From: an uncultured Bacilli bacterium
GTDB taxonomy: Bacteria > Bacillota_I > Bacilli_A > RF39 > UBA660
Direction of reading: 5' to 3'
Assembly (NCBI GenBank): GCA_934087515.1
Contig: CAKOIY010000001.1
Span: 3,308-67,307 of the forward strand
Length of the DNA: 64,000 nucleotides
The notes beneath the pieces were generated by a model. That model was given only the letters and a program-made list of their open reading frames with translations, searched no databases and was not told the DNA's origin. Made by a program: the position numbers and the translations under genes. Every line of letters begins with the position of its first letter. The stretch's first letter is position 1. This document shows, piece by piece, positions 4,064 through 56,704 of the stretch.

Positions 4064-4079
4064 TAAGTAGGTGAATTTT

Positions 4080-4637
4080 ATGATAAATGTTAATGATTTT
4101 AAGAATGGAATGACAATTAAGGTAGAAGGTAATATTTATACTATAATTGAATTTCAACATGTTAAGCCAGGAAAGGGTGCTGCTTTTGTTAGAACTAAGC
4201 TTAAGAATTTAAGAACTGGCTCTACAATTGAATATACTTTTAATTCAGGTGTTAAGTGTGAAACTGCTAGAATTGAGAGAAAACCTATGCAATTTCTTTA
4301 TGAAAGTGGAGATTTGTATACTTTTATGAATATGCAAGATTATTCACAAGTTGAGCTTTCTAAAGATGTAATTGGAGATAATGTTAAGTACTTAAAGGAA
4401 AATCAAGATTTGGATATAACTTTTTATGAAGGTGAGGTTCTAGGAATTTCACTTCCAGATAAGATTGAACTTAAAGTAACTCAAACTGAACCTGGTGTTA
4501 AGGGTAATACTACTTCAAGTGCTCAAAAGGATGCGACGCTTGAAACAGGTTATCAAATTAGAGTACCATTATTTATTAATGAAGGTGAGTCTGTAATAGT
4601 TTCTACAAAAGATGGTAAATATGTTTCAAGAGCTTAG
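4080..4637 (+). CDS. efp: Elongation factor P
   Basis: The translation MINVNDFKNGMTIKVEGNIYTIIEFQHVKPGKGAAFVRTKLKNLRTG... is the canonical EF-P N-terminus and includes the modified-Lys loop KPGKGAAF. Confidence 0.9.
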   Translation: MINVNDFKNGMTIKVEGNIYTIIEFQHVKPGKGAAFVRTKLKNLRTGSTIEYTFNSGVKCETARIERKPMQFLYESGDLYTFMNMQDYSQVELSKDVIGDNVKYLKENQDLDITFYEGEVLGISLPDKIELKVTQTEPGVKGNTTSSAQKDATLETGYQIRVPLFINEGESVIVSTKDGKYVSRA

Positions 4638-4683
4638 CTCTTTTTTATTCCCTTTTTATTTAAATTTTTAGGAGGAAAAGAAT

Positions 4684-5007
4684 ATGGCTGAAAAAGATAT
4701 GAATATGAGTCAAAAAAAAGTATTTAATAGGGGTGTTAGTGCAGGATACTTTAATATTGATGTAGAAGATGTGTCAGTTATGAATGTAGAAGTTAGAAAT
4801 GTTTATGATTTAGGTTTGGAACATGGAAAAGAAAGGCTTAAAACAAAACAAATAAAAGGGGAACTTGATGATGCTTATAATGCTCAAAGAGAAGGGTATT
4901 TAGAAGTATTAAGAGCATGGGAAAATGATGGAGAAATAGTGTTTAAAGAGGGTGTTAAGACTTTGGATACTACTTCTTTAGGACATGGAGTAAGAGTACA
5001 TAGATAA
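4684..5007 (+). CDS. Small hypothetical protein (107 aa)
   Basis: It has a strong RBS AGGAGGAAAAGAAT-ATG. It occupies the position held by yqhV after efp in Bacillus. I recognise no family for it. Confidence 0.45.
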   Translation: MAEKDMNMSQKKVFNRGVSAGYFNIDVEDVSVMNVEVRNVYDLGLEHGKERLKTKQIKGELDDAYNAQREGYLEVLRAWENDGEIVFKEGVKTLDTTSLGHGVRVHR

Positions 5008-5138
5008 AGGTGTGCCTCATTTCTTAGGAAATGGGGTTTTGTTTTGAAAAAAAGTTTTATAATAATAAGAAAATGTTTGGAAACTTTTTTATTTAGTGAT
5101 ATTATTATATTAGTTTATTATAGAGGAGGGTTTATTTT

Positions 5139-7193
5139 ATGAAGAATAATCGTGCTTTTACTTTAGTTGAAATGTTAGCTGTTGTGGTTATACTTGCTAT
5201 TTTAGTGGGGCTTATTGTTCCTAGTGTTTCTGGTTATATTGCAGAGGGAAAGAAAGAATATAATATATCTTTGAAGAAACAGTTGTTACTTGCTGGAAAA
5301 AATTACTATTCTAGTAATAAAGAGAAGTTACCTACTAGGGTGAGTGTTGATGTTAGCAATTTTGTTACTGCTAAGGAGCTTTCTACTTCTAAATATTTGT
5401 CTAAGGATTTAGTGGATTCTAATAAGAATAGTTGTATGGATGATAGTTATGTTGTTGCAAGGAATGATGGTACTGGTGTTAAATATTATTCTTGTTTGAC
5501 TTGTGGTAGTAAGAGTTATTATTCTGGTGATGAGGAAAAGTATTGTAAGAAAATAGAACGTCCAAATATGAATGGAATTTCTTGTAGTATTGATTCTAAT
5601 ACTGTTAAGAATACTGGTTATTCTGTTACTGCTGATGTAAAATATACTGGTAATATTGAAGAACTTTATACTGTTGATGGACATAAAGTTAGACATACTC
5701 AAGTGCTGAGTACAGATAGTTCTAGTACTAAGGTTAAAACTATAAATATTAGTAATTATGGTGATAATTATGTTTATGTTGGTGCTAGTAATGGTAAGTT
5801 GTTGTGTGGTACTATAACTATTCCAAAACCTAGTGATTATGGTGTTATAAGTAAAGATATGTATTTGGTTGATAAGAGTGAATGTGATTCTGTTCGTGAA
5901 AATGGTATTAGTAAGGCTGATTTGAAGAGTGGAAAATATGAAAAATATACTGGGGATAATTGGACTAATAAGTGTATTTATGTTGATCTTAAATATAAGT
6001 CTCTTAGTTTTAAGGAAAAATCTGTTAAATATAAACGAGATAATGCTAATGAAGATAAGTCTGTAACGATAAAAGATAAGCTTAAATATTTTGTAATAGA
6101 TGCTATTAATGATAATGAAAAGGAACATTCTTGGGTTGTGAAGGGAACTTTAAATGATCCTCCATATAATGAGTCTAAAACTGATTTTAATACTAAGATA
6201 GATATTACTTCTCCTAAGGTTATTGTTAAAAATTCTAGTAATGGTGTTTGGACTAATAAGAAAATTACTGTTGATATTACTGCAGAAGATGAGCTTTCAG
6301 GAATTAGGAAAATAGAGTATTCTATTGATAATGGTACGACTTGGACATCTCTTTCTGTTTCTGGTGATGATAAGAAGAAAACTGCTAAAGTTGTATTTGA
6401 TAATACTGAAAACAAAAAATTTAATATGTTAGTTAAGGCTGTTGATAATACTGGTAATATTGGTAATGCATTTACTCCTATAAAATTGGATGTTACTCCT
6501 CCTAGTGTTACTATTTCTAGTTCTAATACTAATTGGACTAAGAATAATGTAACTGTTTCTAGTACTGCTTCTGATAGTCATAGTGGTATTGAAAGTATAG
6601 AATATTCAAAGGATGGTAAGACTTGGTCAACACTTGTTAATGCTACATCTGGTTCTAAGACTTATAGTAGTACTGTGAATGAATATATGTATGTTAGAGC
6701 TAAGGATAAGGCTGGTAATTATAGTAGTAGTAAGAATACTCTTGTTAGAATAGATAAATTACCTCCTAATTCTCCTTATATAAGTACTATTAGTTTTGAA
6801 AAATCTGTTATTAGTGGTAGACATAATTGTTCGGGAGTTGGTGGTACTCAAAGTAATGTCTCTTGTAATGTATGTATATTGTTTACTAAATATAAAGCAT
6901 ATGGTTTTTCTGCTCCTAGAACATATTCTGATGTTGGTGGTAGTGGTGTAGATTATCAACAAAATACTTGGAACCATAATGGTAATGCTAGGACATACAC
7001 TAGTTGGGGTAGTTCAGCTGGTTGGAGTTGGAGAGCTAATAATAATCATTATATGAATTATGTATGGATTGATTTTGGTTCAAGAGTTGTAGATAAGGTT
7101 GGTAATGTTGGGTATCATACAATAGTACATTATAGGATTTATGATACTGATAAGAGATCTGCTTATGATGCTTGCGTTGATGCTTATATATAA
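5139..7193 (+). CDS. Giant modular type IV pilin-like protein (684 aa), paralogue 1
   Basis: The N-terminus MKNNRA|FTLVEMLAVVVILAILVGL has a class-III (prepilin) signal with Glu at +5. A conserved ~130-aa head with a C...CLTC...C pattern is shared with the ORFs at 45827 and 48050. It also has two tandem ~90-aa Ig-like repeats (TPPSVTISS..W.N.VTV..TA.D..SGI..IEYS.DG.TW) and a Cys/Trp/Tyr-rich C-terminus. An RBS AGAGGAGGG lies upstream. Confidence 0.75.
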   Translation: MKNNRAFTLVEMLAVVVILAILVGLIVPSVSGYIAEGKKEYNISLKKQLLLAGKNYYSSNKEKLPTRVSVDVSNFVTAKELSTSKYLSKDLVDSNKNSCMDDSYVVARNDGTGVKYYSCLTCGSKSYYSGDEEKYCKKIERPNMNGISCSIDSNTVKNTGYSVTADVKYTGNIEELYTVDGHKVRHTQVLSTDSSSTKVKTINISNYGDNYVYVGASNGKLLCGTITIPKPSDYGVISKDMYLVDKSECDSVRENGISKADLKSGKYEKYTGDNWTNKCIYVDLKYKSLSFKEKSVKYKRDNANEDKSVTIKDKLKYFVIDAINDNEKEHSWVVKGTLNDPPYNESKTDFNTKIDITSPKVIVKNSSNGVWTNKKITVDITAEDELSGIRKIEYSIDNGTTWTSLSVSGDDKKKTAKVVFDNTENKKFNMLVKAVDNTGNIGNAFTPIKLDVTPPSVTISSSNTNWTKNNVTVSSTASDSHSGIESIEYSKDGKTWSTLVNATSGSKTYSSTVNEYMYVRAKDKAGNYSSSKNTLVRIDKLPPNSPYISTISFEKSVISGRHNCSGVGGTQSNVSCNVCILFTKYKAYGFSAPRTYSDVGGSGVDYQQNTWNHNGNARTYTSWGSSAGWSWRANNNHYMNYVWIDFGSRVVDKVGNVGYHTIVHYRIYDTDKRSAYDACVDAYI

Positions 7194-7201
7194 AATAAAT
7201 T

Positions 7202-7228
7202 GGTTACTTTATGTAACCTTTTTTTTGG
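7202..7228 (+). terminator. Rho-independent terminator after pilin paralogue 1
   Basis: The stem ggttac/gtaacc with loop tttat is followed by a T8 run. Confidence 0.6.
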
Positions 7229-7285
7229 TTTGTTTTTTGTATAATTTTTATTTTTGTACATATATTTTATCAGGAGGAGAGCATT

Positions 7286-7795
7286 ATGGTTAATAAACAA
7301 GGGTTATGGTTTTTAACTTTATTTAGTTTAATATTGGTACTTAGTATTTATTATATAACCATGCCAAATGAAATATTTAAGAGTGAAGAGGTTGTAGCAA
7401 ATGATAATGATACAAAAGATGATAAAGATACTTCAGAGGTTAATAGTCAGAATACAAGTTATATAGAGACTTTAAAGGTTGAGCTGGATTCGGAAAGAGC
7501 AGAGATTTTGAATACTTTAGAAGAAATTTTAAATGATAATTCTAAGAGTAGTTCTGAAAAGAATAAAGCTTATGAACAGATGAAAGAGATTAATAATTTA
7601 AAAGCTAGTGAGGAACAACTAGTTAAGACTATTAAAGAGGAGTATAAACTTGATGCTTATGTAAAACAAGAGGATTCTAAGATTGAAGTTGTAATTGATA
7701 GTAAGGAACATGATGTTAAATTAGCAAATAAGATAATGCGTACTATTCAGAGTGATTTTAATGAACCAATGAGTATATCTGTTAAATTTTCTTAA
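7286..7795 (+). CDS. spoIIIAH: Stage III sporulation protein AH-like (SpoIIIAH/YscJ-FliF family)
   Basis: The N-terminus MVNKQGLWFLTLFSLILVLSIYYITMPNE closely parallels B. subtilis SpoIIIAH (..TVWLLTMLSLVVVLSVYYIMSPE..). It has an acidic linker and a C-terminal domain ending ..SISVKFS, analogous to ..VAVTFEPSK. Confidence 0.6.
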   Translation: MVNKQGLWFLTLFSLILVLSIYYITMPNEIFKSEEVVANDNDTKDDKDTSEVNSQNTSYIETLKVELDSERAEILNTLEEILNDNSKSSSEKNKAYEQMKEINNLKASEEQLVKTIKEEYKLDAYVKQEDSKIEVVIDSKEHDVKLANKIMRTIQSDFNEPMSISVKFS

Positions 7796-7885
7796 AATAG
7801 GTGTTTTTCTTTCACAATAGTTTTATATGTGTCATAAGATAATATGAAATATAAAACCACCCAAGACCTAGAAAGTGAGGGAAAA

Positions 7886-8095
7886 ATGAGAGAAAAGTCT
7901 ATACTTACTAAGAGAGAAAAGGAAGTTTTTCTATTACTTGTTGAGAATAAGACTACTAAAGATATTGCTTTAGAACTTGGTATAAGTGAAAAAACTGTTA
8001 GAAATCATGTTTCTAATGTTATGCAGAAACTTGGTGTTAAGGGTAGGGCTTCGGCAGTAGTAGAGCTTCTTAAGTTAAATGAAATTACTCTTTAG
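7886..8095 (+). CDS. gerE: GerE-like LuxR-family HTH transcription regulator
   Basis: The translation MREKSILTKREKEVFLLLVENKTTKDIALELGISEKTVRNHVSNVMQKLGVKGRASAVVELLKLNEITL is near-collinear with B. subtilis GerE over its full 74-aa length. An RBS AAGTGAGGG lies upstream. The track's start at 7844 is probably overextended. Confidence 0.75.
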   Translation: MREKSILTKREKEVFLLLVENKTTKDIALELGISEKTVRNHVSNVMQKLGVKGRASAVVELLKLNEITL

Positions 8096-8144
8096 ACATG
8101 TATAAAGTTACATGTCTTTTCATATTGTTTAATAGAGGGATATT

Positions 8145-9059
8145 ATGTTGAGAAGGAAAGCAATTAATAGAATATTTTTTTCTACTATAATATTTTTTAT
8201 AGTTTTTACTCTTTATAGTATGAAATTTGTTGATAAGGTTGTTACTAGTGATAATAGTAAAGATAAGGTTAATGAGGAGATTATTTATACTTTAAATAGT
8301 GATAATTATATATCTAAGACTAGTGTTTATGTGAGTAAGGTTTTGTCCTTGGAGGATAGGGTTAGGGAGAAGTTAGAGATTATGGTTAAGGATAATGATA
8401 AAAATGTTCTTTTGCCTAGTTATTTTAAACCTATTTTACCTCAAAATACTAGAGTTTTGGATGTTGTGGTAGAAGATTGTTTAATAAAGGTATATTTTTC
8501 TAAAGAGCTTAATAATATTAATAAGGAACAGTCTGAGAGAATGATTGAGGCTATAGTGTATACTGTTACAGATGAAAATATTTTAGGTATTGAGATATAT
8601 GTTAATGGGCAGATGTTAAAGTATGTTCCTAATACTAGGAAGGTTCTTCCTACTATACTTACAAAAGATATTGGAATAAATAAGTCTTATGATATTAATG
8701 CTAGTAATGATATATCTAAGGTTGTTATGATGTATTATACAAATGATAATGATAATTATTATGAAGTTCCTGTTACTAAGTATGTTAATGATGATAGGGA
8801 GAAATTAGAGATTATTTTTGATGAGTTTGGTAAGATGAGTTATGATAAGAGTTTGATTAGTATGGTGGAAGGAATTAATGTTCTTGATTATAGTATTTTG
8901 GATGATAGAATAGTTATTGATGTTAATAAGGAACTTAATAAGGAGGAACAGAACTTAGTTTTTAAGTCTATTTTTAGTAATTATGGTGCTAAAAGTATTG
9001 ATCTTTTGGTAAATGGTGAAAAAAAAGTTAAAAAAACAAGAAATGCACTTGAAAATTAA
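8145..9059 (+). CDS. GerM-like (GerMN-domain) sporulation/germination lipoprotein
   Basis: It has an N-terminal signal anchor and a two-lobed organisation. Its size and composition fit GerMN-domain proteins. This is a motif impression only. Confidence 0.4.
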   Translation: MLRRKAINRIFFSTIIFFIVFTLYSMKFVDKVVTSDNSKDKVNEEIIYTLNSDNYISKTSVYVSKVLSLEDRVREKLEIMVKDNDKNVLLPSYFKPILPQNTRVLDVVVEDCLIKVYFSKELNNINKEQSERMIEAIVYTVTDENILGIEIYVNGQMLKYVPNTRKVLPTILTKDIGINKSYDINASNDISKVVMMYYTNDNDNYYEVPVTKYVNDDREKLEIIFDEFGKMSYDKSLISMVEGINVLDYSILDDRIVIDVNKELNKEEQNLVFKSIFSNYGAKSIDLLVNGEKKVKKTRNALEN

Positions 9060-10426: not shown

Positions 10427-10455
10427 TTGCAATTATATCGTTTTTGTGGTATAAT
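10427..10455 (+). promoter_or_regulatory. Sigma-A-type promoter (TTGCAA-17 nt-TGgTATAAT) for the downstream repeat-protein gene
   Basis: The -35 element TTGCAA (10427-10432), a 17-nt spacer and an extended -10 TGGTATAAT (10447-10455) are read directly. The element overlaps the track's proposed start codon at 10444. Confidence 0.55.
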
Positions 10456-10482
10456 ATGCGCGAATTAAGTGAGGTGTTTGAT

Positions 10483-12087
10483 GTGGGCGAAGAATTGAAG
10501 AAGATTATAGATGATCCAAATCTTTCGAATGAAGAAATTGCTAAGCGTGTTAGGGAGACTTTAAATAAAAATTCTGAACAAGTGGTAGAGGATAAAAGTA
10601 AAGAGGAACCTATTTCTGAACTTGAAAAAGCATTAAGTCCTGAGGAACTTAATTATTTAATTAGTGTTCTTGATGTTAGACAAGGAGATGTTCAAACTAA
10701 TAATATAATTAAAAAACTTCAAGATAAAGGTGTTAATTTTACTATGGATGAGTTAGTTTCACTACTTGATAAGAAAAAAGAAGAACGTATGAGCAATAAA
10801 GAAGAATTTTTTAATGAACTTGAAAAAAGAATAAGTAAGGAAGATATGGAATATCTTTTGTCTGTTGATTTAGATAATCCTGGTTCAAAAATTAGTTATA
10901 TTGCTGCTAGGGCTGGAGTTACTAATTATGAAGTTATTGAGCTTGCTAAGTATAGAAAAACACAAATGAAGGAGTATGAGAGACTTTCTATATATGATAA
11001 GGCCTTAAATGAACAAGATTTAAAGTATCTTATGGAAGCTAAGGATGTTAATCAAGCTGATTATGAGATAAATAATATACTTGTTAGACTTAGAAAACAA
11101 GGTATTGATGCTAATTTAAAAGATTTAGCTAGTTTTATAGAGTATAAGAAGGGTGGTATTGATTTTTCTAAATTTGATTCAAATAAAGAACAAAATGAAA
11201 AAGAAAATACTAATGAAAAGGATGTAAAAAAGGATAAGCCTGTATCAAAAGAAGATTTATATAAAGAATATCTTGAGATTGACAAGAGAATCAATGAGAT
11301 TGAAAGTATAATGAGAGAGGCTCTTGAAACTAAGAAGAAGGTTTCTGATGAGCTTGTTGCTGAAAGGAATAGACTTCTTGATAGAAAAAGAGAATTAGTG
11401 CCTCAAATTAAAGATATGCTTAATATAAATGATAAGAAAAAGAAACCTAGAGATTTAAGTGATTACGTTGAAGAACAAAAGCAAGAGAAAGAAAAGCAAG
11501 AAGAACAAAAGGCTGATGATAATGAAATAGTTAGTGAAAGAGATGGTTCTTTCTTATCTAAGGCTAAAGGTTTTATTGATAAAGTAAAGAATTTATCTAC
11601 TAAAGGAAAGATAATTGGTCTTGCAGGACTTGCTGCGGCTGGAGTAATTACTGCTGGTGTATATATGGCTATGAAACATGGCGATGTTCAAACACTTAAT
11701 GATGCTCTTCATCAAGCAGGTATGCATATTCAAGATGCTGCCAATCAACTTAATCCTGATCCAAGTGGAATTGATCCTAGTACTATAGGGCAACATATAG
11801 ATACTACTTTTGTTTCAAGTGGGGATGCTGCTAATTATGCACATGCGTTAAAACCAATTGAGGAGTATTTTCAATATGATATTCAAAATTTAGTTGATTC
11901 ACATAATAATATTATTCCTGCTCATGGTATGTCATATGATGAATTGATAGAACTTATAAAAAATGGTAATGACATTGCTTCTGTGCAAGTTGGTGGTGAT
12001 GCTGCACATATTGATGGGCATCTTAATATTAATGATATTCTTAATGCATATGATGCAACAGTTAAGTCTGGAGGAGCGGTTAGATGA
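10483..12087 (+). CDS. Novel helical-repeat protein A with a C-terminal TM segment (about 535 aa)
   Basis: It contains three ~50-aa repeats of the type L..EDL.YLM.AKDV.QADYEINNIL.RLRKQG.(D/N)ANL.DLA.FIE.KKG, also present in the ORF at 12397. A charged coiled-coil region follows, then one TM helix (IIGLAGLAAAGVITAGVYMAM) and a His/Asp-rich C-terminal domain. The start is placed at GTG 10483 after RBS GAGGTG, because the promoter overlaps the ATGs at 10444 and 10456. Confidence 0.45.
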   Translation: MGEELKKIIDDPNLSNEEIAKRVRETLNKNSEQVVEDKSKEEPISELEKALSPEELNYLISVLDVRQGDVQTNNIIKKLQDKGVNFTMDELVSLLDKKKEERMSNKEEFFNELEKRISKEDMEYLLSVDLDNPGSKISYIAARAGVTNYEVIELAKYRKTQMKEYERLSIYDKALNEQDLKYLMEAKDVNQADYEINNILVRLRKQGIDANLKDLASFIEYKKGGIDFSKFDSNKEQNEKENTNEKDVKKDKPVSKEDLYKEYLEIDKRINEIESIMREALETKKKVSDELVAERNRLLDRKRELVPQIKDMLNINDKKKKPRDLSDYVEEQKQEKEKQEEQKADDNEIVSERDGSFLSKAKGFIDKVKNLSTKGKIIGLAGLAAAGVITAGVYMAMKHGDVQTLNDALHQAGMHIQDAANQLNPDPSGIDPSTIGQHIDTTFVSSGDAANYAHALKPIEEYFQYDIQNLVDSHNNIIPAHGMSYDELIELIKNGNDIASVQVGGDAAHIDGHLNINDILNAYDATVKSGGAVR

Positions 12088-12317
12088 AAGATAAGATAAT
12101 TACTTTAGGAAATGGTAAAGAGTTTTTAATAGTTGATGTTTGTAGATATAATGGTATTGACTATTGCTTGGTGTGTGAAGTAGTTAATAATGATACTACT
12201 GATTCGTTTGGAGTTATTAGAATTGATGAAATTGATGGTAAGCGAAAAATAACTGTTATTGAAGATGAAAATATTATTAAGAATGTATTTGCTATAGTTG
12301 AAAAGAATTTTAGTTAG
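12084..12317 (+). CDS. DUF1292-like small protein (YrzB-like), copy 1
   Basis: The 77-aa ORF has the pattern KIITLGNGKEFLIVDVCRYNGIDYCLVCEVVNND...IRIDEIDG...TVIED. Its start overlaps the stop of the upstream gene (ATGA). Confidence 0.45.
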   Translation: MKDKIITLGNGKEFLIVDVCRYNGIDYCLVCEVVNNDTTDSFGVIRIDEIDGKRKITVIEDENIIKNVFAIVEKNFS

Positions 12318-12396
12318 ATTTTGTTGTGAAATTTATTTATTTATGTTATAATACACGAAAAAGAGGGGTTCCCTTTGTGAGAGGAGATAATAATTT

Positions 12397-13710
12397 ATGA
12401 ACGAAAATGAAAATTTAGAAGCAAGACTTGCTGATCTTGAAAGACAAGTAGCGGAAATTAAAAATATGATTAGTGCTCAAAGTAATAAAAATTTTGATGT
12501 TTCTGTGTATGAAAATGTTTTAAGTGATAGTGATATGGCTTATTTAATGAATGCTAAGGATGTTAGGCAAGCTGATTATGAGATAAATAATATACTTGCT
12601 AGACTTAGAAAGCAAGGTGTTAATGCTAATTTAAATGATTTAGCTAATTTTATTGAATCTAAGAAGGGGACTAGTACTAAGAATGATGATTCTAATGTTA
12701 GTGAAAAGATAAAGGAACTTGCTAGTAAGTTAACTGATTATGATATGAAATATTTATTAAGTATAGAGAATCCTAATCAAACAAACTTTTTATTTAGTAG
12801 TTTAAATGCTAGATATGGAGCAAGTATTGATGATTTGATTGCTGCTGCTAAATATAAGAATGCACATATGAATGATGTTAAGCTTGAAAGTGGTGTAGTT
12901 GCTGAAGAAGAAACTCCTGTTGAGAGTGATAATTTATTAGAAGAACTTGATAGATTAGATAAGAAGTATGAAGAAGCTCTTGATAAAGGTGATGATGTTT
13001 CTGAAATTAATGGTAAAAGAAATGCTGTGCTTGATGCAATTGATAAATCAAAAGTTAATGAATCTGGTAATGTTAGTAGTGTAGTTTCTGATAATGAATA
13101 TCCAAAACTTGAATCTGCTGATATGAATAAGATTTCTCAAATACTTATGAATGCTAAAATTGGTAATAATATATTAAATCAAATGGCTGAAAAGTATGGT
13201 GTTAATAAAGATGTTTTCTATAAAATGTTTAACTTAAATATGCTTGAAAGGAATTTTGGTTTAAAAGTTGAAAAACCTAATAAGATGCCAGAAAAAATTG
13301 AAAGTGTTGATAGTAAGTATAAGGTTGTTCCTGAACCTTCGATGAATGATGAGGTTAAAGGTGTTTATCCTTTGACTGTTGAAGAATTTAAGGAAAATGG
13401 TGGTTTGGAGCCTGATAGTAGAGGTAGAAGATTTGTTAAGAAGATAGCAAATAGTAGGATTATTAGATTTTTGGTTGACAAGGCTAAGGAAATGCATATG
13501 AAAATGAAGATGAAAAAACAAGATGAAATAAGTTATGAGAGTGATTCTTCTGCTATTTCAGAGAAAAATTATGAAAAAATTCCTTCTAAAAAGGAAAAAA
13601 TGGAGGCATATCAAAAAGAAGTAGAAAAGATGAAGGCTAATGAAAATGAGATAGATGAAAATGTAGCTTTTAATGATGAGCCAGAAATAACTAAATTTAA
13701 TGCTAGATAA
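12397..13710 (+). CDS. Novel helical-repeat protein B (437 aa), paralogue of 10483..12087
   Basis: It shares the DMAYLMNAKDVRQADYEINNILARLRKQGVNANLNDLANFIESKKG repeat with protein A. The rest is acidic coiled-coil. An RBS GAGAGGAG and an upstream TTATAAT -10 element are present. Confidence 0.5.
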   Translation: MNENENLEARLADLERQVAEIKNMISAQSNKNFDVSVYENVLSDSDMAYLMNAKDVRQADYEINNILARLRKQGVNANLNDLANFIESKKGTSTKNDDSNVSEKIKELASKLTDYDMKYLLSIENPNQTNFLFSSLNARYGASIDDLIAAAKYKNAHMNDVKLESGVVAEEETPVESDNLLEELDRLDKKYEEALDKGDDVSEINGKRNAVLDAIDKSKVNESGNVSSVVSDNEYPKLESADMNKISQILMNAKIGNNILNQMAEKYGVNKDVFYKMFNLNMLERNFGLKVEKPNKMPEKIESVDSKYKVVPEPSMNDEVKGVYPLTVEEFKENGGLEPDSRGRRFVKKIANSRIIRFLVDKAKEMHMKMKMKKQDEISYESDSSAISEKNYEKIPSKKEKMEAYQKEVEKMKANENEIDENVAFNDEPEITKFNAR

Positions 13711-13725
13711 GAAAGGGGAAAAAAT

Positions 13726-13977
13726 ATGACTTTTAAAAGATATGATGTTATTACTTTTGAAGAAAATGATAAGGTAGTGGTACTTGCTGCACTTGTGCAT
13801 GAAGGAAATGAATATGTTTATGTTAATGAGATATTACCTGATGAATCTGATGTAACTGATGTATATAAGGTAATGGTTGTGCATTATGAAGATGGGACAC
13901 TTGAAAAGGTAATTGATCCTGAACTTCTTCATGTATTGTTACCTAAGTTTCAAGAGTTATTAGAACAAGCTGATTAA
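13726..13977 (+). CDS. DUF1292-like small protein, copy 2
   Basis: The translation YDVITFEENDKVVVLAALVHEGNEYVYVNEILPDESD..VYKVMVVHYEDGTLEKV follows the DUF1292 pattern. Confidence 0.5.
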   Translation: MTFKRYDVITFEENDKVVVLAALVHEGNEYVYVNEILPDESDVTDVYKVMVVHYEDGTLEKVIDPELLHVLLPKFQELLEQAD

Positions 13978-13978
13978 A

Positions 13979-14012
13979 GTTAAACTTATTCTGAGTTATG
14001 AATAAGTTTCTT
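13979..14012 (+). terminator. Rho-independent terminator
   Basis: A perfect 10-bp stem aaacttattc/gaataagttt has an 8-nt loop and is followed by a T-rich run. Confidence 0.6.
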
Positions 14013-14032
14013 TTGTATGGGTGGTGAATATA

Positions 14033-14935
14033 ATGAGCAATGAAGTTAAAAAATTAAGTGAAAAAGCTAGTGATGAAGATAAAGTTAGAATTGAAAAACT
14101 AATGGAATTACCTCTTAATGATAGTGAACGTGATGCTTCTATTAAGTTAATTGTTTTGGATTCTTTTGCTAAGTTAATGTATGATGATGAATTAAATATA
14201 GTTTTTGATGAGTCTGATAAGGCAAAGGATGCAAGAGATGCTATTGCTAATAGATTAGGTGTTGATTCTGATGAATTACAGATGATTGCTGATTATAAGA
14301 AGAAGAATAATGTTAAATGTACTTTGAATAGAAATGATGTTATAAAGAAGAATTCTGATCTTAATGAATTTATTGATAAGATGAGTGTTGCAGAGATGAA
14401 TTCTATACTTAATATGAAGGCATCTGGTAATTATGATGATAATATTTTGAATAATATTTCTAGTAGAATTGGTGCTTCTGCTTCTAAACTTGAAGAAATT
14501 GCTGTTGAAAAGAATAAAGGTCTTATGAGTGGTAAGAATAATGATAAATCTATGGAAAATGGTGAGTCTAAATCTTTAGATGAAAATAATAATAATAATA
14601 ATGACAAAGATAAAGATAAAGAAAAGGAAGTTACTTCTAGTTCTAGTGGGTCTAATGGCACTAATCTTGAAGAAAAAGATGATTCTTCAAAGACTAAGGT
14701 TTCTGCTGATTTAACTCCTGAAAAGAAGAAAAAACCTAATAGAATTACTACAGCAGGTGCTAAACTTATTGCTTCGATTAAAAATAATAAAGGTAAAGCT
14801 ATGCTTGGTATATTAGGTCTTGGTGCTGTTGCAGTTCTTGCTATTACTAATCCTGTTATGTTTTGGACTTTACTTGCTGCGGCTGGTATTGGTAAGATAT
14901 ATAAAGATTTTCAAGCTGGAGCAAAAGGTAGATAA
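14033..14935 (+). CDS. Hypothetical protein with Asn/Asp/Lys low-complexity region and C-terminal membrane hairpin
   Basis: The ORF has an RBS GGTGGTGA and ATG at 14033. An N-terminal helical region is followed by the low-complexity stretch ENNNNNNDKDKDKEKE. The C-terminus LGILGLGAVAVLAI..LLAAAGIG is hydrophobic. Confidence 0.45.
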   Translation: MSNEVKKLSEKASDEDKVRIEKLMELPLNDSERDASIKLIVLDSFAKLMYDDELNIVFDESDKAKDARDAIANRLGVDSDELQMIADYKKKNNVKCTLNRNDVIKKNSDLNEFIDKMSVAEMNSILNMKASGNYDDNILNNISSRIGASASKLEEIAVEKNKGLMSGKNNDKSMENGESKSLDENNNNNNDKDKDKEKEVTSSSSGSNGTNLEEKDDSSKTKVSADLTPEKKKKPNRITTAGAKLIASIKNNKGKAMLGILGLGAVAVLAITNPVMFWTLLAAAGIGKIYKDFQAGAKGR

Positions 14936-16404: not shown

Positions 16405-19008
16405 GTGAAAAGAAAGATTATAATAATGGTTTTGGCTATTAGTTTATTTGTTCCTATTTCTTATGTAAGTGCTAGTGATAATACTTATAGTTTTGATGAA
16501 GTTAGTACGAATGAACTTTTGGATGATAAGGATTATAAGAGTGATGAACTTATTGTAGTTTTTAATGATAATTTATCTAATAAAGCCATTAATAATGTTG
16601 TTAGAAATGAGAATGCTATTGTTAAGAATATTAAGAGGCTTGATGATGATTCTGTGAGTGTTAGGGTTAAGATTTCTGATGATATGGAAACTGCTATTGA
16701 TAGTTTTAAGGATAATCCTAGAGTTGCTTTTGTACAACCTAATTATAAGTATAAAGTAAATTCTGATGCTAGTGTTTATAACAATCCTAATTATCAATAT
16801 CATATTGATCTTATTAAGACTAAAGAGGCTTGGAGTTTAGTTGAGTCTAAGGGTAATACTACTAAGGTTTCTGTTATTGATACTGGTGTTGATGTTAAAC
16901 ATGAGGATTTACAAAAAAATTTGGTTTCTAATAGTAGTTATACTCAAACTGTTGGTGGAATTAAGAAACAAGTTGTGTATGATTCTGATCATCATGGTAC
17001 ACATGTTACTGGAATAATTGGTGCAACTTATGGTAATGGTATTGGTGTTTCTGGTGTTGCTTCAGGTAATAATAATAATTTAGCTAAGATTATGGTGGTT
17101 GGAACAAGTTTTGACGGGGAAAGTATGTATACTTCAGATATTATTGATGCTATTAATTATTCTAAAGATAATGGCGCTAAAGTTATTAATATGAGTTTGG
17201 GTGGTACTGGTAGAGATAGGGCAATGGAAGCTGCTATTCGTGATGCTTATGATAATGGCATTGTGCTTGTTGCAGCATCTGGTAATGACGAATCTAATGA
17301 GTTTAGTTCACCAAGTGATTTTAAAGAGGTAATAAGTGTTAATGCTTCTAATAAGTATAATAAGCCTGTTTATTGGTCTGATTATGGTATTAGTAAAGAT
17401 ATTAGTGCACCTGGTTATAATATACTTAGTACTACTCCTGGAAATACTTATGAATTACTTAGTGGTACTTCTATGGCATCACCAATTGTTGCCGGGGTAG
17501 TTGCTTTAATGCTTGATGCTAATCCTAGTTTGACTCCTGCTGAGGTGTATAATATACTTTGTGCTAGTACTGGTCAAAGTGATTTTGATGAAATGCTTGG
17601 TTATGGTATTGTAAATGCTAAGGAAGCTGTTTCTGCTGCTATAGATGCTAGTTCTTCAGTTGATGTAGATTCTGTATCTATAAAAGATTATGATGCTTCT
17701 TATAGTGCTGATTATGATGCTGTTGTTTATGAAAATGATGATATTTCTTTAGAGGCTTTGGTTAGGCCTGCGACTTCTTTAAAGAAAGTTGAATGGTCTA
17801 GTAGTGATGATTCTATTGCTAAAGTTGATTCTGTTACTGGTAGGGTTACTGGTGTTAAGTCAGGATTTGTTACAATAACTGCTAGTGTTTCTGGTAAGAG
17901 TGATAGTGTTTTAGTTAAGGTTAAGGAGTCTTTATCTCAAACTGGTATATCTATTGTATCTAAAGAAGATTATTCTAGTATTGTAAAAGGTTCTTCTTAT
18001 GAACTTAAGGCTAATATTTTACCTAGTAATGCTACTAATAAAGAAGTTTATTGGTCTTCTAGTGATAGAACTGTTGCAGATATAAATGAACTTGGTATTC
18101 TTACTGGTAAATCTTCTGGAAAGGCTACTATTACAGTTAAAACTTATGATGGAAAGTATTATGATAGTTTTGACGTAATTGTTACTAGTCCTGCTAGTGT
18201 TAAACTTACTAAGTATGCTTCTAAGTTACTTGTTGGTAATAAGTATACTTATAAGGGTTATGTTTTAGATATAGATGGTAAGAAAACTAATGATAAGATT
18301 ATATGGTCTAGTACTAGTGCTAGTATTGCTAAGATAGATAGTAATGGAACTGTTACTGCACTTAAGCCTGGTACTACTTATATAGTTGGTACTGTTAAGG
18401 GTACTGATCAAGGAAATCGTCTTGTTAAGGTAGCATATAGATTGTTTGTTGGTAAGACTAATTATGCTTTAGGAGATTATAATCTTAAAGTTAGAAAGGT
18501 TACTTATAATAGTGTTACTTTGAATTGGAATAAGATTAATGTTGCTAGTAAATATATAGTTGAAAGAGCTATGAGTTCTAATGGTTCTTATGCAAAGATT
18601 GGTGAGGTTACGGGTACTTCTTATAAGGATTCTAATGTTGTTTTAGGTAAAAGATATTATTATAGAATAAAGGCTGTTTATAGTAGTACTAAGTCATTTA
18701 GTTATTCTTATAGTGTTAATGCTTTAGTTTCTCTTGATAAACCAGTTATTTCTGTTACTAATTATAAGTCTAGATATTTAAAGATTTCTATTAATAAAGT
18801 TCCTAGTGCTAGAGGTTATACTATATATAGAGCTAGTTCTGTTAATGGTTCTTATAAGGTAGTTACTTCTACTACTAAGAATTATTATATTAATGGTAAG
18901 CTTGTTAAGAATAAGAGATATTATTATAAAGTTAGGGCTTATAAGGTTGTTAATGGTAAGAAAGTATATAGTCCTTATTCAAGTATTAAGAGTAGGGTAG
19001 TTAGGTAG
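16405..19008 (+). CDS. Secreted subtilisin-like serine protease (S8) with C-terminal Big_2 and fibronectin-III-like domains
   Basis: It has a signal peptide and the catalytic triad context VIDTGVD (Asp), HGTHVTG (His) and GTSMASPIVAG (Ser). Three SKxxxxATVDxxGxVTAxKxGTATIT-type Ig-like repeats follow, then W/Y-rich FN3-like repeats. Confidence 0.85.
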   Translation: MKRKIIIMVLAISLFVPISYVSASDNTYSFDEVSTNELLDDKDYKSDELIVVFNDNLSNKAINNVVRNENAIVKNIKRLDDDSVSVRVKISDDMETAIDSFKDNPRVAFVQPNYKYKVNSDASVYNNPNYQYHIDLIKTKEAWSLVESKGNTTKVSVIDTGVDVKHEDLQKNLVSNSSYTQTVGGIKKQVVYDSDHHGTHVTGIIGATYGNGIGVSGVASGNNNNLAKIMVVGTSFDGESMYTSDIIDAINYSKDNGAKVINMSLGGTGRDRAMEAAIRDAYDNGIVLVAASGNDESNEFSSPSDFKEVISVNASNKYNKPVYWSDYGISKDISAPGYNILSTTPGNTYELLSGTSMASPIVAGVVALMLDANPSLTPAEVYNILCASTGQSDFDEMLGYGIVNAKEAVSAAIDASSSVDVDSVSIKDYDASYSADYDAVVYENDDISLEALVRPATSLKKVEWSSSDDSIAKVDSVTGRVTGVKSGFVTITASVSGKSDSVLVKVKESLSQTGISIVSKEDYSSIVKGSSYELKANILPSNATNKEVYWSSSDRTVADINELGILTGKSSGKATITVKTYDGKYYDSFDVIVTSPASVKLTKYASKLLVGNKYTYKGYVLDIDGKKTNDKIIWSSTSASIAKIDSNGTVTALKPGTTYIVGTVKGTDQGNRLVKVAYRLFVGKTNYALGDYNLKVRKVTYNSVTLNWNKINVASKYIVERAMSSNGSYAKIGEVTGTSYKDSNVVLGKRYYYRIKAVYSSTKSFSYSYSVNALVSLDKPVISVTNYKSRYLKISINKVPSARGYTIYRASSVNGSYKVVTSTTKNYYINGKLVKNKRYYYKVRAYKVVNGKKVYSPYSSIKSRVVR

Positions 19009-19018
19009 GAGGTAGAGT

Positions 19019-20707
19019 ATGAAAAAGAAAATTATATCGTTAGTTTTAGTATGTGCATTACTTATTACTATTTTACCTAGTGGTGTTAGTGCTCTTAGTA
19101 AGGTTAATCCTTCAGAGAAGAAGGAGGTTTCTTTAAAGAAAGTTAATGATAAGTCTTTAATTGTTAAAACTCCGACTGCTAAGCAAATTAGAAAGGCTGG
19201 TAGTGAACTTGATTTTTATAAACAAAGTTTTATTGAACAAGTTGAGGAGACTTATTCTCGATATGATTATGTAACTTATATTGATTCTGTTAGGAAGGCT
19301 TTTGAGAAGGCACATCAAGAGGCTATTGATACACTTAATAATCTTAGTTCTTTAGATGATTTGTTTTATGATTATGAGGAAGGTACTGTTTCTTTAGATG
19401 TTAATTTACCTTATGCTACTATGACTACTATTGGTGGTTGGGATTATGATTATGTTACTACTGATAATTATTATTTGACTTTGAAAAAACGTGGTCTTAA
19501 GGCTATAAATGATGCTTTTGATTGTTTTTATGAAGGGGATTTTAGTACTTATTATAATACTATAATTAATTCTTATCGTAGTGAGTATTTAGGATATGTA
19601 AGTAGTGCTAATGATTATTATTCACTTGCTAAAGGTTTTGCTAATATTGGTTTAGTTGGAGATTATAATAATTTTACATATGTTGATATTTCTTTTGATT
19701 TAGATAATTATAATGGTGAAGATGCTGAATCTATGTCTGGTTCTTGTCAATATGATGCTTATGGTTATTTTCCTGATTTTGAATATGTAGAGTTTTTAAA
19801 TAGTGTTGGTATTGCGTCTATTCCTTCTTATTCTCTTGGTCGTGTTATTTATTCTTTAGGAGAAGTTCAAGATACTAAAAATGCTTTTAGTGCATATATT
19901 AATAATTATGTATATGAACAACTTAAAGCTAGTGGTTATAAGGTTACTGATGAGATTATAGATATGGCTGATAAGACTCTTGATGATATTAATAATGGTT
20001 ATAATCCTGATACTATGTATACTAAGTATATTGATTTGATTGAAAAATTTGAAGATATGACTGGTGTTACTTATCAAAAACTTAGTTCTACTACTACATT
20101 TAAACTTGCTGCTGGTATTGATAAGTTATCTAAGAAGTATTTGGATAAAAAAGTTTATTCTAATGCTGGTTATAATACTAATTATAATCTATTAGATAAT
20201 GCTAGTAGTGCTATTAATGTTGTGTATGAGGTAGAAATACCTAGAAATTTCTTGGTTAAGCTTGAAAAACTTCTTAAGAAGACTCCAACTAGAGTTGTTG
20301 AACTTAGTAATGCCAAGAAGTCATATGCTAATAAGTTAAATACTTTTAAGAATAATAAAAAGTATAATCAAAAGAAAGTTGTTCCTATTGTTAATGAGGG
20401 AATTAGTAAAATAAATAAGGCTACTTCAGTTGATAGTGTTAAGAGTATATATAATACTTATTATAAGAAGGCTTTACTTACTATAAATAAATATAAGATA
20501 ACTACTTCAAAGACTGGTAAGGGTGTTATTACCAAGAGTAAAACTGTTAATTATGGTTCTAATGTTGTTATTACTATGACTCCTAGTAAGGGTTATAAAC
20601 TTAGTAAGGTTTATGTAGATGGTAAACGTGTTAGTGTTAAGAGTAAGTATACATTTAAGAATGTTACTTTGAATCATTCTATAAAGGCAGTTTTTGTTAA
20701 GAAGTAG
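19019..20707 (+). CDS. Secreted hypothetical protein with a C-terminal Listeria-Bacteroides (Flg_new/InlB B-repeat-like) domain
   Basis: A signal peptide is present. The C-terminal motif is GKGVITKSKTVNYGSNVVITMTPSKGYKLSKVYVDGKRVSV. Confidence 0.55.
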   Translation: MKKKIISLVLVCALLITILPSGVSALSKVNPSEKKEVSLKKVNDKSLIVKTPTAKQIRKAGSELDFYKQSFIEQVEETYSRYDYVTYIDSVRKAFEKAHQEAIDTLNNLSSLDDLFYDYEEGTVSLDVNLPYATMTTIGGWDYDYVTTDNYYLTLKKRGLKAINDAFDCFYEGDFSTYYNTIINSYRSEYLGYVSSANDYYSLAKGFANIGLVGDYNNFTYVDISFDLDNYNGEDAESMSGSCQYDAYGYFPDFEYVEFLNSVGIASIPSYSLGRVIYSLGEVQDTKNAFSAYINNYVYEQLKASGYKVTDEIIDMADKTLDDINNGYNPDTMYTKYIDLIEKFEDMTGVTYQKLSSTTTFKLAAGIDKLSKKYLDKKVYSNAGYNTNYNLLDNASSAINVVYEVEIPRNFLVKLEKLLKKTPTRVVELSNAKKSYANKLNTFKNNKKYNQKKVVPIVNEGISKINKATSVDSVKSIYNTYYKKALLTINKYKITTSKTGKGVITKSKTVNYGSNVVITMTPSKGYKLSKVYVDGKRVSVKSKYTFKNVTLNHSIKAVFVKK

Positions 20708-20788
20708 TACTAGTTATTAGAAAAACATTCTATAGGGTGTTTTTCTTTTTTTGTCTAAACATAAAAAAAATACTTAAACCAAGTATTT

Positions 20789-22273
20789 TTATATTACTAT
20801 AGCTATTAGATTGTTTGATCCTTTGTTTACTACTTTGGACATTGTTGTTTGAAATTTATATCTTACGTTTTCTGGCATCATTGATATTTTTGATTGGATT
20901 CCTTCTTGGACTATTTTGTCTAAGCTTCTTCCAAATATTTCGCTTGACCAGATACTGTTTGGATCACTATTGCTATCTTTCATTAGGTGTTCTATTAGTT
21001 CTTTGCTTTGGGCTTCGCTACCGATTATTGGTTCAAAGCTTGATTCTACATCTACTCTTATCATATGTATTGATGGTGCTGTTGCTTTTAGTTTTATTCC
21101 ATATCTTGATCCTTGTTTTGTTATTTCTGGTTTGTCTAATTTCATATCTTTTATAGTGGGATTTGCAACTCCGTATCCAGTTGTTTTTACCATTTTTAGA
21201 GCTTGTTCTAGTTCTTTATATTCTGTTTTTGTTTCTTTGTATTCTTGGAATATTTTCAAAAGATTTGTTTTGTTTGTTATGTCTATGTCAATCATTTCGT
21301 TTAATACTTTTTCGAATAGTTCTTGAGGTGCTTCTAATGTTATGGTTATGATTCCTGTTTTAGGATCTACTAAGGACATATAGGCATTTTTTATGTACTG
21401 GCAATTGTTGAAATGACTTATTATTCCATCAACATCACGTAATTTATCTACTTCAATTACACTTTCTTTTATTTTATCTATGTAAGCTTTTTTGACATAA
21501 TGATTTGGTTTTAGGATTCCAATCCATTCTGGTATATCGATGTTTACTTCTAATATAGGAAATTCATATAGAGCTTCTCTTAATATATTATTTATTTCTA
21601 TTTCATTCATATTTAGTACATCTATTGGTAGGACAGGTACTTTGTATTTTACTTTTAGTTCTTCTGTTAGTTTTTCTGTTTCTTTTGCTGTTGGTTTAGT
21701 TGTATTTAGTATTATTATATATGGTTTGTTTATTGAACTTAGTTCTAGTGCTATTTTTTCTTCTGCTTCAATATAGTCTTTTCTTGAGAATTCTCCGATA
21801 GTTCCATCTGTTGTAATCATTATTCCTATTGTTGAGTGGTCTCTTATTACTTTTTCTGTTCCTATTTCTGCGGCTTCAACGAATGGTATTTCATCTTTGT
21901 ACCAGGGGGTTTTTACCATTCTAGGGCCGTTTTCGTCTTCGTAGCCTTTGGCTTCATCAATTATGTATCCTACGCAGTCTACTAGTCTCATGTTACAAGT
22001 CATGTCATCTATTTTTATTTGGGCAACATTGTTGGGAACAAATTTGGGTTCTATAGTCATAATAGTTTTTCCTCCACTTGATTGTGGTATTTCATCTAGA
22101 GCTCTTTTTCTTTCGTATTCGTCTTCTATGTTGGGAACTATAAGTTCTTCTACTACTTTTTTGATAAAGGTTGATTTTCCAGTTCTTACTGCTCCAACTA
22201 CTCCTAGGTAAATGTCTCCGCCGGTACGATAGGCTATGTTTTTGATTATTTCTTGTTTATCCACATGCATCAC
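20789..22273 (-). CDS. spoIVA: Stage IV sporulation protein A (spore coat morphogenetic ATPase)
   Basis: The N-terminus ..IAYRTGGDIYLGVVGAVRTGKSTFIKK..PNIEDEYERKRALDELPQSSGGKTIMTIEPKFVPN..RLVDCVGY is near-identical in pattern to B. subtilis SpoIVA. The length is about 494 aa. Confidence 0.85.
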   Translation of the reverse strand: MMHVDKQEIIKNIAYRTGGDIYLGVVGAVRTGKSTFIKKVVEELIVPNIEDEYERKRALDEIPQSSGGKTIMTIEPKFVPNNVAQIKIDDMTCNMRLVDCVGYIIDEAKGYEDENGPRMVKTPWYKDEIPFVEAAEIGTEKVIRDHSTIGIMITTDGTIGEFSRKDYIEAEEKIALELSSINKPYIIILNTTKPTAKETEKLTEELKVKYKVPVLPIDVLNMNEIEINNILREALYEFPILEVNIDIPEWIGILKPNHYVKKAYIDKIKESVIEVDKLRDVDGIISHFNNCQYIKNAYMSLVDPKTGIITITLEAPQELFEKVLNEMIDIDITNKTNLLKIFQEYKETKTEYKELEQALKMVKTTGYGVANPTIKDMKLDKPEITKQGSRYGIKLKATAPSIHMIRVDVESSFEPIIGSEAQSKELIEHLMKDSNSDPNSIWSSEIFGRSLDKIVQEGIQSKISMMPENVRYKFQTTMSKVVNKGSNNLIAIVI

Positions 22274-47984: not shown

Positions 47985-48049
47985 ATTGATAAAATTTTAT
48001 TTTTGTTTTATAATATTTTATAGTGATAATAGTGTTGGGAGGTATGAGT

Positions 48050-53754: not shown

Positions 53755-54201
53755 TTATTTTGCTTCTTTTATGAATCCAGCTGATTCTATTTTTGATTTT
53801 ATTCTAGCTTTAGTTTGTTCTCCTTCTATTTTGATTAGGCTTTCTTCTCCTTTATCGAAAAATAAGACTGTTGGAGTTCCATTTATACTAAATAGTTCAT
53901 CATAAATTTCTTGTTCTTTTTCTGATAGATTGCTTATGTTTAGACTATAGGCTTCTATATTATTTTCACTTAATACACTTATGAAGTTTGGAGTAAATGC
54001 TTTGCAGTGTTCACAGTCTGTTTGTTTTATGTAAAGAATGAAGTTATCTTTGTTTTTGATTTTTGATGTTACTTCGTTTAATGTTATGTCGTGGATGTAT
54101 TTTTCTTTGTCTTGTGAGAATACTAAAGCAATTATTATTAAGGCTATTATTAGTAATATAAATAGGAATAGCCATTTATGTTTTTTTATCATTTTTAACA
54201 C
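53755..54201 (-). CDS. Membrane-anchored thioredoxin-fold thiol-disulfide oxidoreductase
   Basis: It has an N-terminal TM helix and a CEHC (CxxC) active site in thioredoxin-like context. Confidence 0.6.
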   Translation of the reverse strand: MLKMIKKHKWLFLFILLIIALIIIALVFSQDKEKYIHDITLNEVTSKIKNKDNFILYIKQTDCEHCKAFTPNFISVLSENNIEAYSLNISNLSEKEQEIYDELFSINGTPTVLFFDKGEESLIKIEGEQTKARIKSKIESAGFIKEAK

Positions 54202-56583: not shown

Positions 56584-56704
56584 AAAAATCGTTCCCCTTT
56601 ATTCTAATTTGTAAAATTCATAGTTATTTTATTTTTACACTAGAATTTATTCTAAAAGTATTATATAATAAATTTGTAAAATAAGCAAGTAGAAGGTGAG
56701 TAAT

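Follow-up and report, generated by a model that had tools for sequence, protein, structure and literature searches.

Whether very large proteins that begin like type IV prepilins are genuine pilin subunits, and what the bulky regions following their N-termini may be for, is the question raised by three genes, referred to here as P1, P2, and P3, present in a 64,000-nucleotide (nt) stretch of the genome of an uncultured Bacilli bacterium (lineage RF39; UBA660). This stretch (contig CAKOIY010000001.1, positions 3,308–67,307 of the forward strand, approximately 29% G+C) is called the window below, and all the coordinates given are window coordinates. An original prediction made from the sequence had described the three products as modular pilins, that is, pilin subunits carrying adhesive or enzymatic modules. 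On the basis of the analyses presented here, we consider it probable (roughly 0.6) that P1, P2, and P3 belong to the modular type IV pilins and are displayed via a type IV filament. They are new representatives of a known modular pilin design and not a new kind of system.

Three Open Reading Frames with Class III Prepilin Signals

The three open reading frames (ORFs) with textbook prepilin signals that had been proposed do exist at or near the positions expected, all on the plus strand: P1 extends from 5139 to 7193 and encodes 684 amino acids (aa), P2 extends from 45827 to 47956 (709 aa) and P3 from 48050 to 49732 (560 aa), in agreement with the predicted range of 560–710 aa. In the case of P3, the mechanically delimited ORF starts at the GTG codon at 48023; the ATG codon at 48050, which is preceded at a distance of 7 nt by a GGGAGG ribosome-binding site, was preferred and gives the length of 560 aa. 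All the N-termini have the features of class III signals, namely a short basic leader with Gly or Ala as its last residue, Phe or Met at position +1, and Glu at position +5: the sequences, with the leader and the mature protein separated by a slash, are MKNNRA/FTLVEML (P1), MEKRFKRA/FTLVEML (P2), and MFNRKG/FTLVEVL (P3). The scores obtained with the Pfam family N_methyl (PF07963) were 28.5, 22.3, and 27.0 bits, respectively, all above the gathering threshold of 21.2, and those obtained with TIGR02532 (22.2, 18.6, and 24.4 bits) were all above the cut-off of 16.3.

In the numbering of the mature proteins, P1, P2, and P3 have F1, E5, P22, and Y27 in common, and these positions are typical of filament-forming type IVa pilins. 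Glu 5, a charged residue within the hydrophobic segment, does not vary either in the P2 orthologues (E13) or in the alignment of the pilin module (A5), and the mature consensus of the family members with a locatable class III motif includes F1 (95%), P22 (68%), and Y27 (89%). It could be argued that these are ordinary signal-anchored (type II membrane) or Sec-secreted proteins resembling prepilins by chance, since hydrophobic N-termini are common and no prepilin peptidase was found in the window. The invariance of Glu 5, the conservation of F1, P22, and Y27, and the fact that both the Pfam and TIGR02532 cut-offs were passed make this extremely improbable.

The Head Shared by the Three Proteins

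The existence of a conserved head of about 130 aa with four Cys residues, as previously suggested, was borne out by BLASTP comparisons, in which the heads of P1 and P2 were found to be 47% identical over 126 aa (E=2e-29) and those of P2 and P3 45% identical over 128 aa (E=2e-29). The similarity between P1 and P3 (37% identity, E=1e-69) spans 455 aa, and these two proteins therefore also have the middle part of their sequences in common. The four-Cys pattern, C…CxxC…C, is present in all three proteins and invariant in their orthologues (alignments A1, A3, and A5). Nothing was annotated by Pfam or NCBIfam in the three heads past the N-terminal motif, which is consistent with the earlier view that the combination of this head with immunoglobulin (Ig)-like and Cys-rich regions cannot be assigned to any named family.

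A profile of the mature pilin module was built from 26 family members, including the full mature N-terminus, and was searched against the PDB. The best match was with PilE1 of Streptococcus sanguinis (8pfb; E=5e-9) and covered profile positions 1–90; further matches were with Myxococcus PilA, Geobacter PilA-N, GspG, and Neisseria PilE. Both the full mature N-terminus and the greater number of sequences in the profile were required for these pilin matches. The fact that the match with solved pilins reaches position 90 also argues against a chance resemblance on the part of ordinary membrane anchors.

Weak NCBIfam matches with ComGC, ComGE, ComGD, and GspG, together with the name "type II secretion system protein" given by NCBI to the orthologue P0023, might suggest that P1–P3 are subunits of a Com pilus or of a pseudopilus similar to that of type II secretion systems, serving in DNA uptake or protein export and not in adhesion. 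This seems improbable: the NCBIfam equivalog cut-offs of ComGC, ComGD, ComGE, and ComGF (49–80) were not reached by the scores recorded (13–31 bits, on the N-terminal helix only), nor was the GspG TIGRFAM cut-off (88.85, vs. 21–25.7 bits for P1–P3), so that none of the three proteins qualifies as a type II pseudopilin (GspG, GspH, or GspI). The weak family matches are confined to the N-terminal 35–60 residues approximately and lie far below the cut-offs (21–31 bits, as against 49–89). In addition, Com minor pilins are small proteins encoded by the comG operon, which counts against this explanation, and no comG-like operon is present around P1–P3.

Predicted Structures and Domains of P1

The AlphaFold2 model of P1 (mean predicted local distance difference test score, pLDDT, 82.9) includes a 51-residue helix (residues 9–59), a small beta head (strands 73–77, 104–109, and 114–119), and the subsequent beta domains 148–228, 238–354, 360–450, 456–538, and 545–684. 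That of P2 (mean pLDDT 78.4) has a similar layout, with a poorly modeled N-terminus and a Cys-rich end forming long hairpins. The helix of about 50 residues, the small beta head, and the Ig-like sandwiches that a modular pilin was expected to show were modeled. A long helix followed by a beta head is seen in P1 and recurs with low confidence in P2, and the profile match with solved pilins extends over positions 1–90. The matches listed in whole-chain fold searches were dominated by generic Ig chains. No enzyme fold was present in the domain and fold search results, and no von Willebrand factor A (vWA) or concanavalin-like lectin module was detected by Pfam at E≤1 or among the fold matches.

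In P1, the leader MKNNRA and the alpha1 helix (5139–5315, aa 1–59), with a predicted cleavage site between Ala and Phe, are followed by the globular head (5316–5558), which contains C99, C119, C122, and C136. The stalk domains D1 (aa 141–232; pLDDT 55–80) and D2 (aa 233–356; pLDDT about 90), which are encoded at 5559–6206, are beta-rich and common to P3. Next come two tandem Ig-like domains of the OmpL47 type (6207–6764; aa 357–450 and 451–542). The underlying repeats, initially located at about 6190–6430 and 6475–6730, were found with slightly different limits, at about 6192–6479 and 6480–6770 (aa 352–447 and 448–544, approximately). Their mutual identity is 41% (E=5e-15), and they matched the NCBIfam model NF047446 (OmpL47-type beta-barrel domain) with 54.6 bits, the cut-off being 40. 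The C-terminal domain (6765–7190, aa 543–684) is rich in Cys, Tyr, and Trp and ends in a helix; it is conserved in P0004, P0006, and P0007 and has the motifs D-GGSG and D-x-(A/V)GN in common with the P1 Ig repeats.

The Cysteine-Rich Tail of P2 and the Relationship between P2 and P3

P2, of which 16 full-length orthologues were obtained, ends in a Cys-rich tail (47525–47953, aa 567–709) comprising 22 Cys, 25 Lys, and 19 Tyr residues, and the whole protein contains 34 Cys; the last 150 aa likewise contain 22 Cys, and the figure of 27 previously given for this stretch was too high. Degenerate CG(C/V/I)x(T/S/Q)Y repeats were observed five times in this tail, as compared with a mean of 0.055 in shuffled sequences. 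The C-terminal sequence CWHY is nearly invariant among the P2 orthologues (alignment A2), and about eight representatives elsewhere in the family have it as well. The idea that this tail forms a cystine knot, which had been put forward at the outset, was rejected, as there was no fold evidence for it, only the degenerate repeats modeled as long beta-hairpins with mixed confidence (pLDDT 47–95).

P3 showed a weak match with NF047446 (aa 364–432, 20.6 bits), which is below the cut-off, and P2 showed none. The terminator located downstream of P2 (47956–47981, plus strand) has a 96% identical 26-nt copy downstream of P3 (49731–49756), which suggests that a unit consisting of a gene and its terminator was duplicated in tandem.

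Not far from P2 and P3, the minus strand encodes at 53755–54201 a thioredoxin-like protein which is anchored in the membrane and contains a CEHC motif (Pfam Thioredoxin, 34.9 bits); it has syntenic counterparts in two related loci (L004 and L011; 70% identity). This protein may be an extracytoplasmic thiol-disulfide oxidoreductase acting on the Cys-rich pilin domains.

According to the definition of Raynaud et al. (2021), modular pilins carry the pilin motif and at least one further domain that is not specific to type IV pili, which applies to P1, P2, and P3. The extra modules of these proteins resemble adhesin stalks by fold only. The description as modular pilins is supported by the class III signal, the matches with pilins in the PDB, and the modeled helix, head, and Ig stalk.

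A Large Family of Proteins Carrying the Same Head

When the complete sequences were used as queries in word-indexed searches, about eight relatives of P1 and about 16 full-length relatives of P2 were obtained. An exhaustive search with a profile of the head only, from which the first 22 residues were omitted, yielded 1527 cluster representatives (clusters defined at 50% identity) with E≤1e-3, 452 of which had E≤1e-10. The head is nearly always located at residues 30–140, approximately, in proteins ranging from 122 to 1445 aa in length. Among the best 142 of these 1527 representatives, the class III motif was found in 133 and the four-Cys pattern in 138; their median length is about 640 aa, and 36 have Cys-rich tails. 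Several family members measure 131–141 aa and stop directly past the fourth Cys, and the head can therefore stand alone as a pilin-sized protein. When 63 members were analyzed with Pfam, N_methyl was detected in 54 of them and almost nothing else. Since the modules are nearly invisible to Pfam, an InterPro-based survey would miss this family.

In some members, the C-terminal end consists of an ALK/LTK-type glycine-rich domain recognized by Pfam, and a papain-like peptidase-type region or a Big_2 domain with a hydrolase-like region was distinguished by eye in others (P0049, P0139, P0156, P0050, and P0057 are examples of divergent ends). The fact that the four-Cys head is attached to such very different ends indicates that it is a general carrier. 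The relatives come from metagenome-assembled genomes labeled as uncultured Bacilli (from the Hadza and rabbit gut), and some of them are labeled as Mycoplasma or Tenericutes.

Sequence Divergence and Selection

Comparisons between syntenic loci showed identities of 67–97% in the neighboring genes, as against 37% in the P1 orthologue, 42–43% in the P2 orthologues, and 38–39% in the P3 orthologues. The ratio of non-synonymous to synonymous substitution rates (dN/dS) was computed for P1 against two close orthologous variants. It amounted to 0.34–0.35 in the whole gene, 0.10–0.15 in the leader and helix, and 0.02–0.10 in the head (0.02–0.15 for helix plus head); 0.46–0.67 in D1 and D2, or 0.46–0.73 with the first Ig-like domain included; 0.20–0.41 in the second Ig-like domain; and 0.18–0.29 in the C-terminal domain. 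The flanking genes gave values of 0.00–0.20, and in these two close variants no P1 domain had a dN/dS value above 1. This pattern indicates that the genes are functional, that constraint acts on the pilin module and on the tip, and that the stalk is free to vary. A constrained pilin module and tip, a relaxed stalk, and a faster divergence than that of the neighboring genes are what would be expected of adhesins facing a host or phages.

The three copies had also been thought to point to an adhesin or antigenic-variation repertoire. In the case of antigenic or phase variation, they would act as alternative or donor cassettes which recombine or switch expression. The existence of three diverged paralogues, their fast divergence between strains and species, the elevated dN/dS values of the stalk, and the presence of a different surface-protein gene in the second P2/P3 slot of relatives (see below) would fit antigenic or phase variation. 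However, the paralogous heads are only about 70% identical at the DNA level, without any long identical tracts, and no recombination cassettes, invertons, or inverted repeats around the promoters were found among the repeats of the window or on comparing the DNA of the paralogues. The copies are individually equipped with a ribosome-binding site and a terminator, their chromosomal positions are conserved in relatives, and dN/dS does not exceed 1 in any domain of P1. A cassette or inversion mechanism is therefore very unlikely; a diverse repertoire of adhesins is still plausible.

Genomic Context and Putative Filament Machinery

P1 is located between efp and spoIIIAH, and the same position was observed in three related loci (L001, L016, and L017). 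P2 and P3 are flanked by ffh-rpsU-yqeY on one side and by mraZ-rsmH-ftsL-pbp on the other, and this position is kept in L004. The downstream mraZ side is also kept in L006 and L007, where the second P2/P3 slot is instead occupied by a SpaA/dockerin-type protein: a 1302-aa surface protein of this type is encoded in the P3 slot of L006 (2453–6361), and two such genes are present in L007 (2625–6688). The P2/P3 locus appears to be a hot spot of surface-protein gene exchange.

Each of the three genes has its own promoter-like site and strong ribosome-binding site and is flanked by terminator-like hairpins. Upstream of P1 (5014–5131, plus strand), there is a terminator (5014–5037), a promoter-like site (5077–5105, TTGGAA-17-TATTAT with a TG), and a ribosome-binding site (AGAGGAGG, approximately 5123–5131), these upstream elements being consensus matches only; a terminator-like hairpin is located downstream (7202–7218, plus strand). 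Rfam searches with the gathering and E-value thresholds detected three tRNAs only, so that no riboswitch, whether for cyclic di-GMP or another ligand, precedes the pilin genes.

A role of P1 in sporulation was envisaged in view of its position between efp and spoIIIAH and was not retained, since nothing beyond this position supports it and P1 has its own terminators. In Bacillus subtilis, the spoIIIAA-AH operon follows efp; in the present case, the genes spoIIIAA-AG do not occur between efp and spoIIIAH, and none of them were seen in the window. The P1 region (4071–9059) continues with genes encoding a GerE-type regulator and GerM, and this gene order is conserved in three related contigs. A 107-aa ORF without any significant family match lies between efp and P1 (4684–5007); it occurs in the close relatives L016 and L017 (dN/dS about 0.2) and is missing in L001, a syntenic locus which is more distant.

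An incomplete type IV filament locus, the genes of which had not been mentioned in the original prediction, occupies positions 54883–59252. It includes, on the minus strand, a gene encoding a PilB/GspE-type assembly ATPase (54883–56583; Pfam T2SSE, 409.5 bits), which has no N1 domain. The ATPase scored 473.7 bits with the NCBIfam GspE model and 455 bits with the PilB model, both below the equivalog cut-offs because the N-terminus is missing, and 263.6 bits with ComGA, the cut-off of which is 300. The lack of the N1 domain, as in ComGA, and the score with the ComGA model might be taken to favor the Com or type II secretion alternative discussed above, but GspE and PilB scored higher and the ComGA cut-off was not reached. 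The C-terminal portion of about 165 aa (55360–54883, minus strand) is an Asn/Gln-rich low-complexity tail. In the best 120 orthologue matches listed, the core is 88–100% identical and the length varies from 456 to 689 aa, and the tail therefore expands and contracts. Divergently transcribed from the ATPase gene is P4 (56696–58585, plus strand), a 629-aa prepilin-like protein (KG/FAMAE) with leucine-rich repeats (LRRs) of the BspA type (LRR_5, 179.7 bits), in which N_methyl was not detected by Pfam. P5 (58563–59252, plus strand; 229 aa; KG/MTIVE), which overlaps the end of P4, is likewise prepilin-like, and its N_methyl score (17.2 bits) is below the gathering threshold of 21.2.

As regards the rest of the window (1–64000), almost all the genes are on the plus strand, and the G-C skew is positive throughout and extremely high, ranging between +0.27 and +0.51 per 2-kb block, apart from the block 20001–22000 (+0.095). 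Three consecutive acidic, Lys-rich ORFs of 547, 437, and 304 aa are present at 10444–14935; the first and second share the motif …N/RQADYEINNIL.RLRKQG..ANL.DLA.FIE.KKG…, and the first and third a C-terminal hydrophobic stretch. A secreted subtilisin-like (S8) protease of 867 aa, in which apparent Big_2- and FN3-like repeats were noted by eye, is encoded in the region 16405–20707 and is followed by a 562-aa protein with a signal peptide, these genes forming a second surface/secreted pair.

Proposed Mode of Display and Its Significance

Each protein would be synthesized as a prepilin, and its short basic leader would be expected to be removed by a prepilin peptidase (none is encoded in the window) cleaving behind the Ala or Gly residue, leaving an N-terminal Phe, which might then be methylated, and a Glu residue at position +5 on a membrane-embedded hydrophobic helix. 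The helix and the Cys-containing head would constitute the pilin module allowing the protein to enter the type IV filament machine, the assembly ATPase of which is probably the PilB/GspE-type protein encoded at 54883–56583. Since the head carries a 55–70 kDa Ig-like stalk and C-terminal domain, P1–P3 would most likely be rare or tip-located subunits, and not the main constituents, of the filament into which they would be incorporated, and their C-terminal domains, held away from the thick cell wall, may act as adhesins.

Several observations weigh against display via a filament. P1–P3 are solitary genes placed among housekeeping genes, far from the ATPase gene, as are the giant pilin genes of relatives. 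On reading the ORFs of the window and of about 200 kb of related loci, neither Peptidase_A24 nor a PilC/GspF platform protein was found, and the prepilin peptidase motif G[GMAS]GD.K. did not occur when the window and 15 loci were read in all six frames. No pilin-sized gene with the four-Cys head is present in the window. On the structural side, the pLDDT of the helix and head is only moderate in P1 (54–86) and poor in P2 (30–70), the head was not isolated by the whole-chain fold searches, and the head-only profile lacking the first 22 residues gave no significant match in the PDB.

The main alternative is that the proteins are displayed on the surface without any true pilus. The class III signal would then serve only for processing and anchoring, the proteins being held in the membrane by the helix or assembled into a very short pseudopilus-like stub, as in the Sulfolobus bindosome, and the Ig stalk would span the wall. 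The solitary location of the genes among housekeeping genes in every genome sampled, the mostly large size of the head-family representatives (as indicated by the median of the best 142), and the lack of a major pilin, PilC, or PilD nearby, in the window and the loci retrieved, are in line with this explanation, and a row of about five Ig-like domains, as modeled, could possibly cross a Gram-positive wall; the sugar-binding proteins of the bindosome, which have class III signals, provide a precedent (PMC3047682). We nevertheless consider it rather unlikely, in as much as the conservation of P22 and Y27 and the strong purifying selection on the head fit the packing of subunits better than mere anchoring, filament-forming pilins are the best matches in the PDB, pilin-sized members of the head family exist, and an assembly ATPase is present.

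A broader proposal, which we regard as doubtful, is that the four-Cys head might mark a large unrecognized system of uncultured gut Bacilli, in which the prepilin pathway would be a general display route for dozens of giant proteins and would rely on a minimal orphan PilB-type machine, without any long pilus. It would cover Ig stalks with Cys-rich, glycine-rich, peptidase-like, or LRR ends. If it were true, this route would be the bacterial counterpart of the archaeal bindosome and would take the place of sortase/LPXTG as a main surface route in this lineage.

The modular pilin design and the role of such a protein as an adhesin have been established in the case of S. sanguinis PilB (PMC8179133). 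Modular pilins are thought to explain the functional range of simple type IV filaments; few of them have been studied, and surveys need modules known to databases. More than 1200 modular pilins with 264 architectures have been reported, and many more, with modules lacking any database signature, have been predicted to exist (Raynaud et al., 2021, PMC8179133). The head family described here is hosted by abundant uncultured gut Bacilli. The current understanding of type IV filaments is not changed by these findings; if the display of P1–P3 on a filament is confirmed, the head would be a search handle with which to catalogue surface adhesins, and the Cys-rich tail ending in CWHY would be a new extracellular module.

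Comparison with Known Systems

At the level of the single domain and not of the system, the P1 repeats share the motifs D-x-x-SG(I/V) and D-x-AGN with the Ig-like domains of NF047446, Big_12, DUF7743, and the HYR-like group. PilE1 (8pfb), the type IVa pilins, and GspG have F1, E5, P22, and the aromatic positions of the helix in common with P1–P3, but they are proteins of 14–16 kDa without extra modules, and no sequence similarity with their beta head is detectable in P1–P3.

The bindosome of Sulfolobus (PMC3047682) is comparable in that large proteins with class III signals are displayed on the surface and are encoded away from the assembly genes. It differs in consisting of archaeal solute-binding proteins which depend on the Bas system, nothing comparable to which was identified here. 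Minor pilins of the type of TcpB and of CofB of enterotoxigenic Escherichia coli, which have beta-repeat and beta-sandwich domains, resemble P1–P3, at least by description, in having a pilin module, a linker, and beta-rich domains, with a proposed location at the filament tip (PMC8179133), whereas they belong to type IVb systems of diderms and are encoded in pilus operons.

The PilB (vWA) and PilC (lectin) proteins of S. sanguinis (PMC8179133; PMC9934059) are not related to P1–P3 in sequence past the N-terminal helix. They are encoded in the pil locus, unlike the solitary P1–P3 genes, and the modules of P1–P3 are Ig-like and Cys-rich and are carried by a head belonging to a distinct four-Cys family. 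What PilB and PilC have in common with P1–P3 is a monoderm host, a class III signal, a small N-terminal pilin module, and a bulky C-terminal non-pilin module, in proteins of more than 50 kDa expected to act as adhesins.

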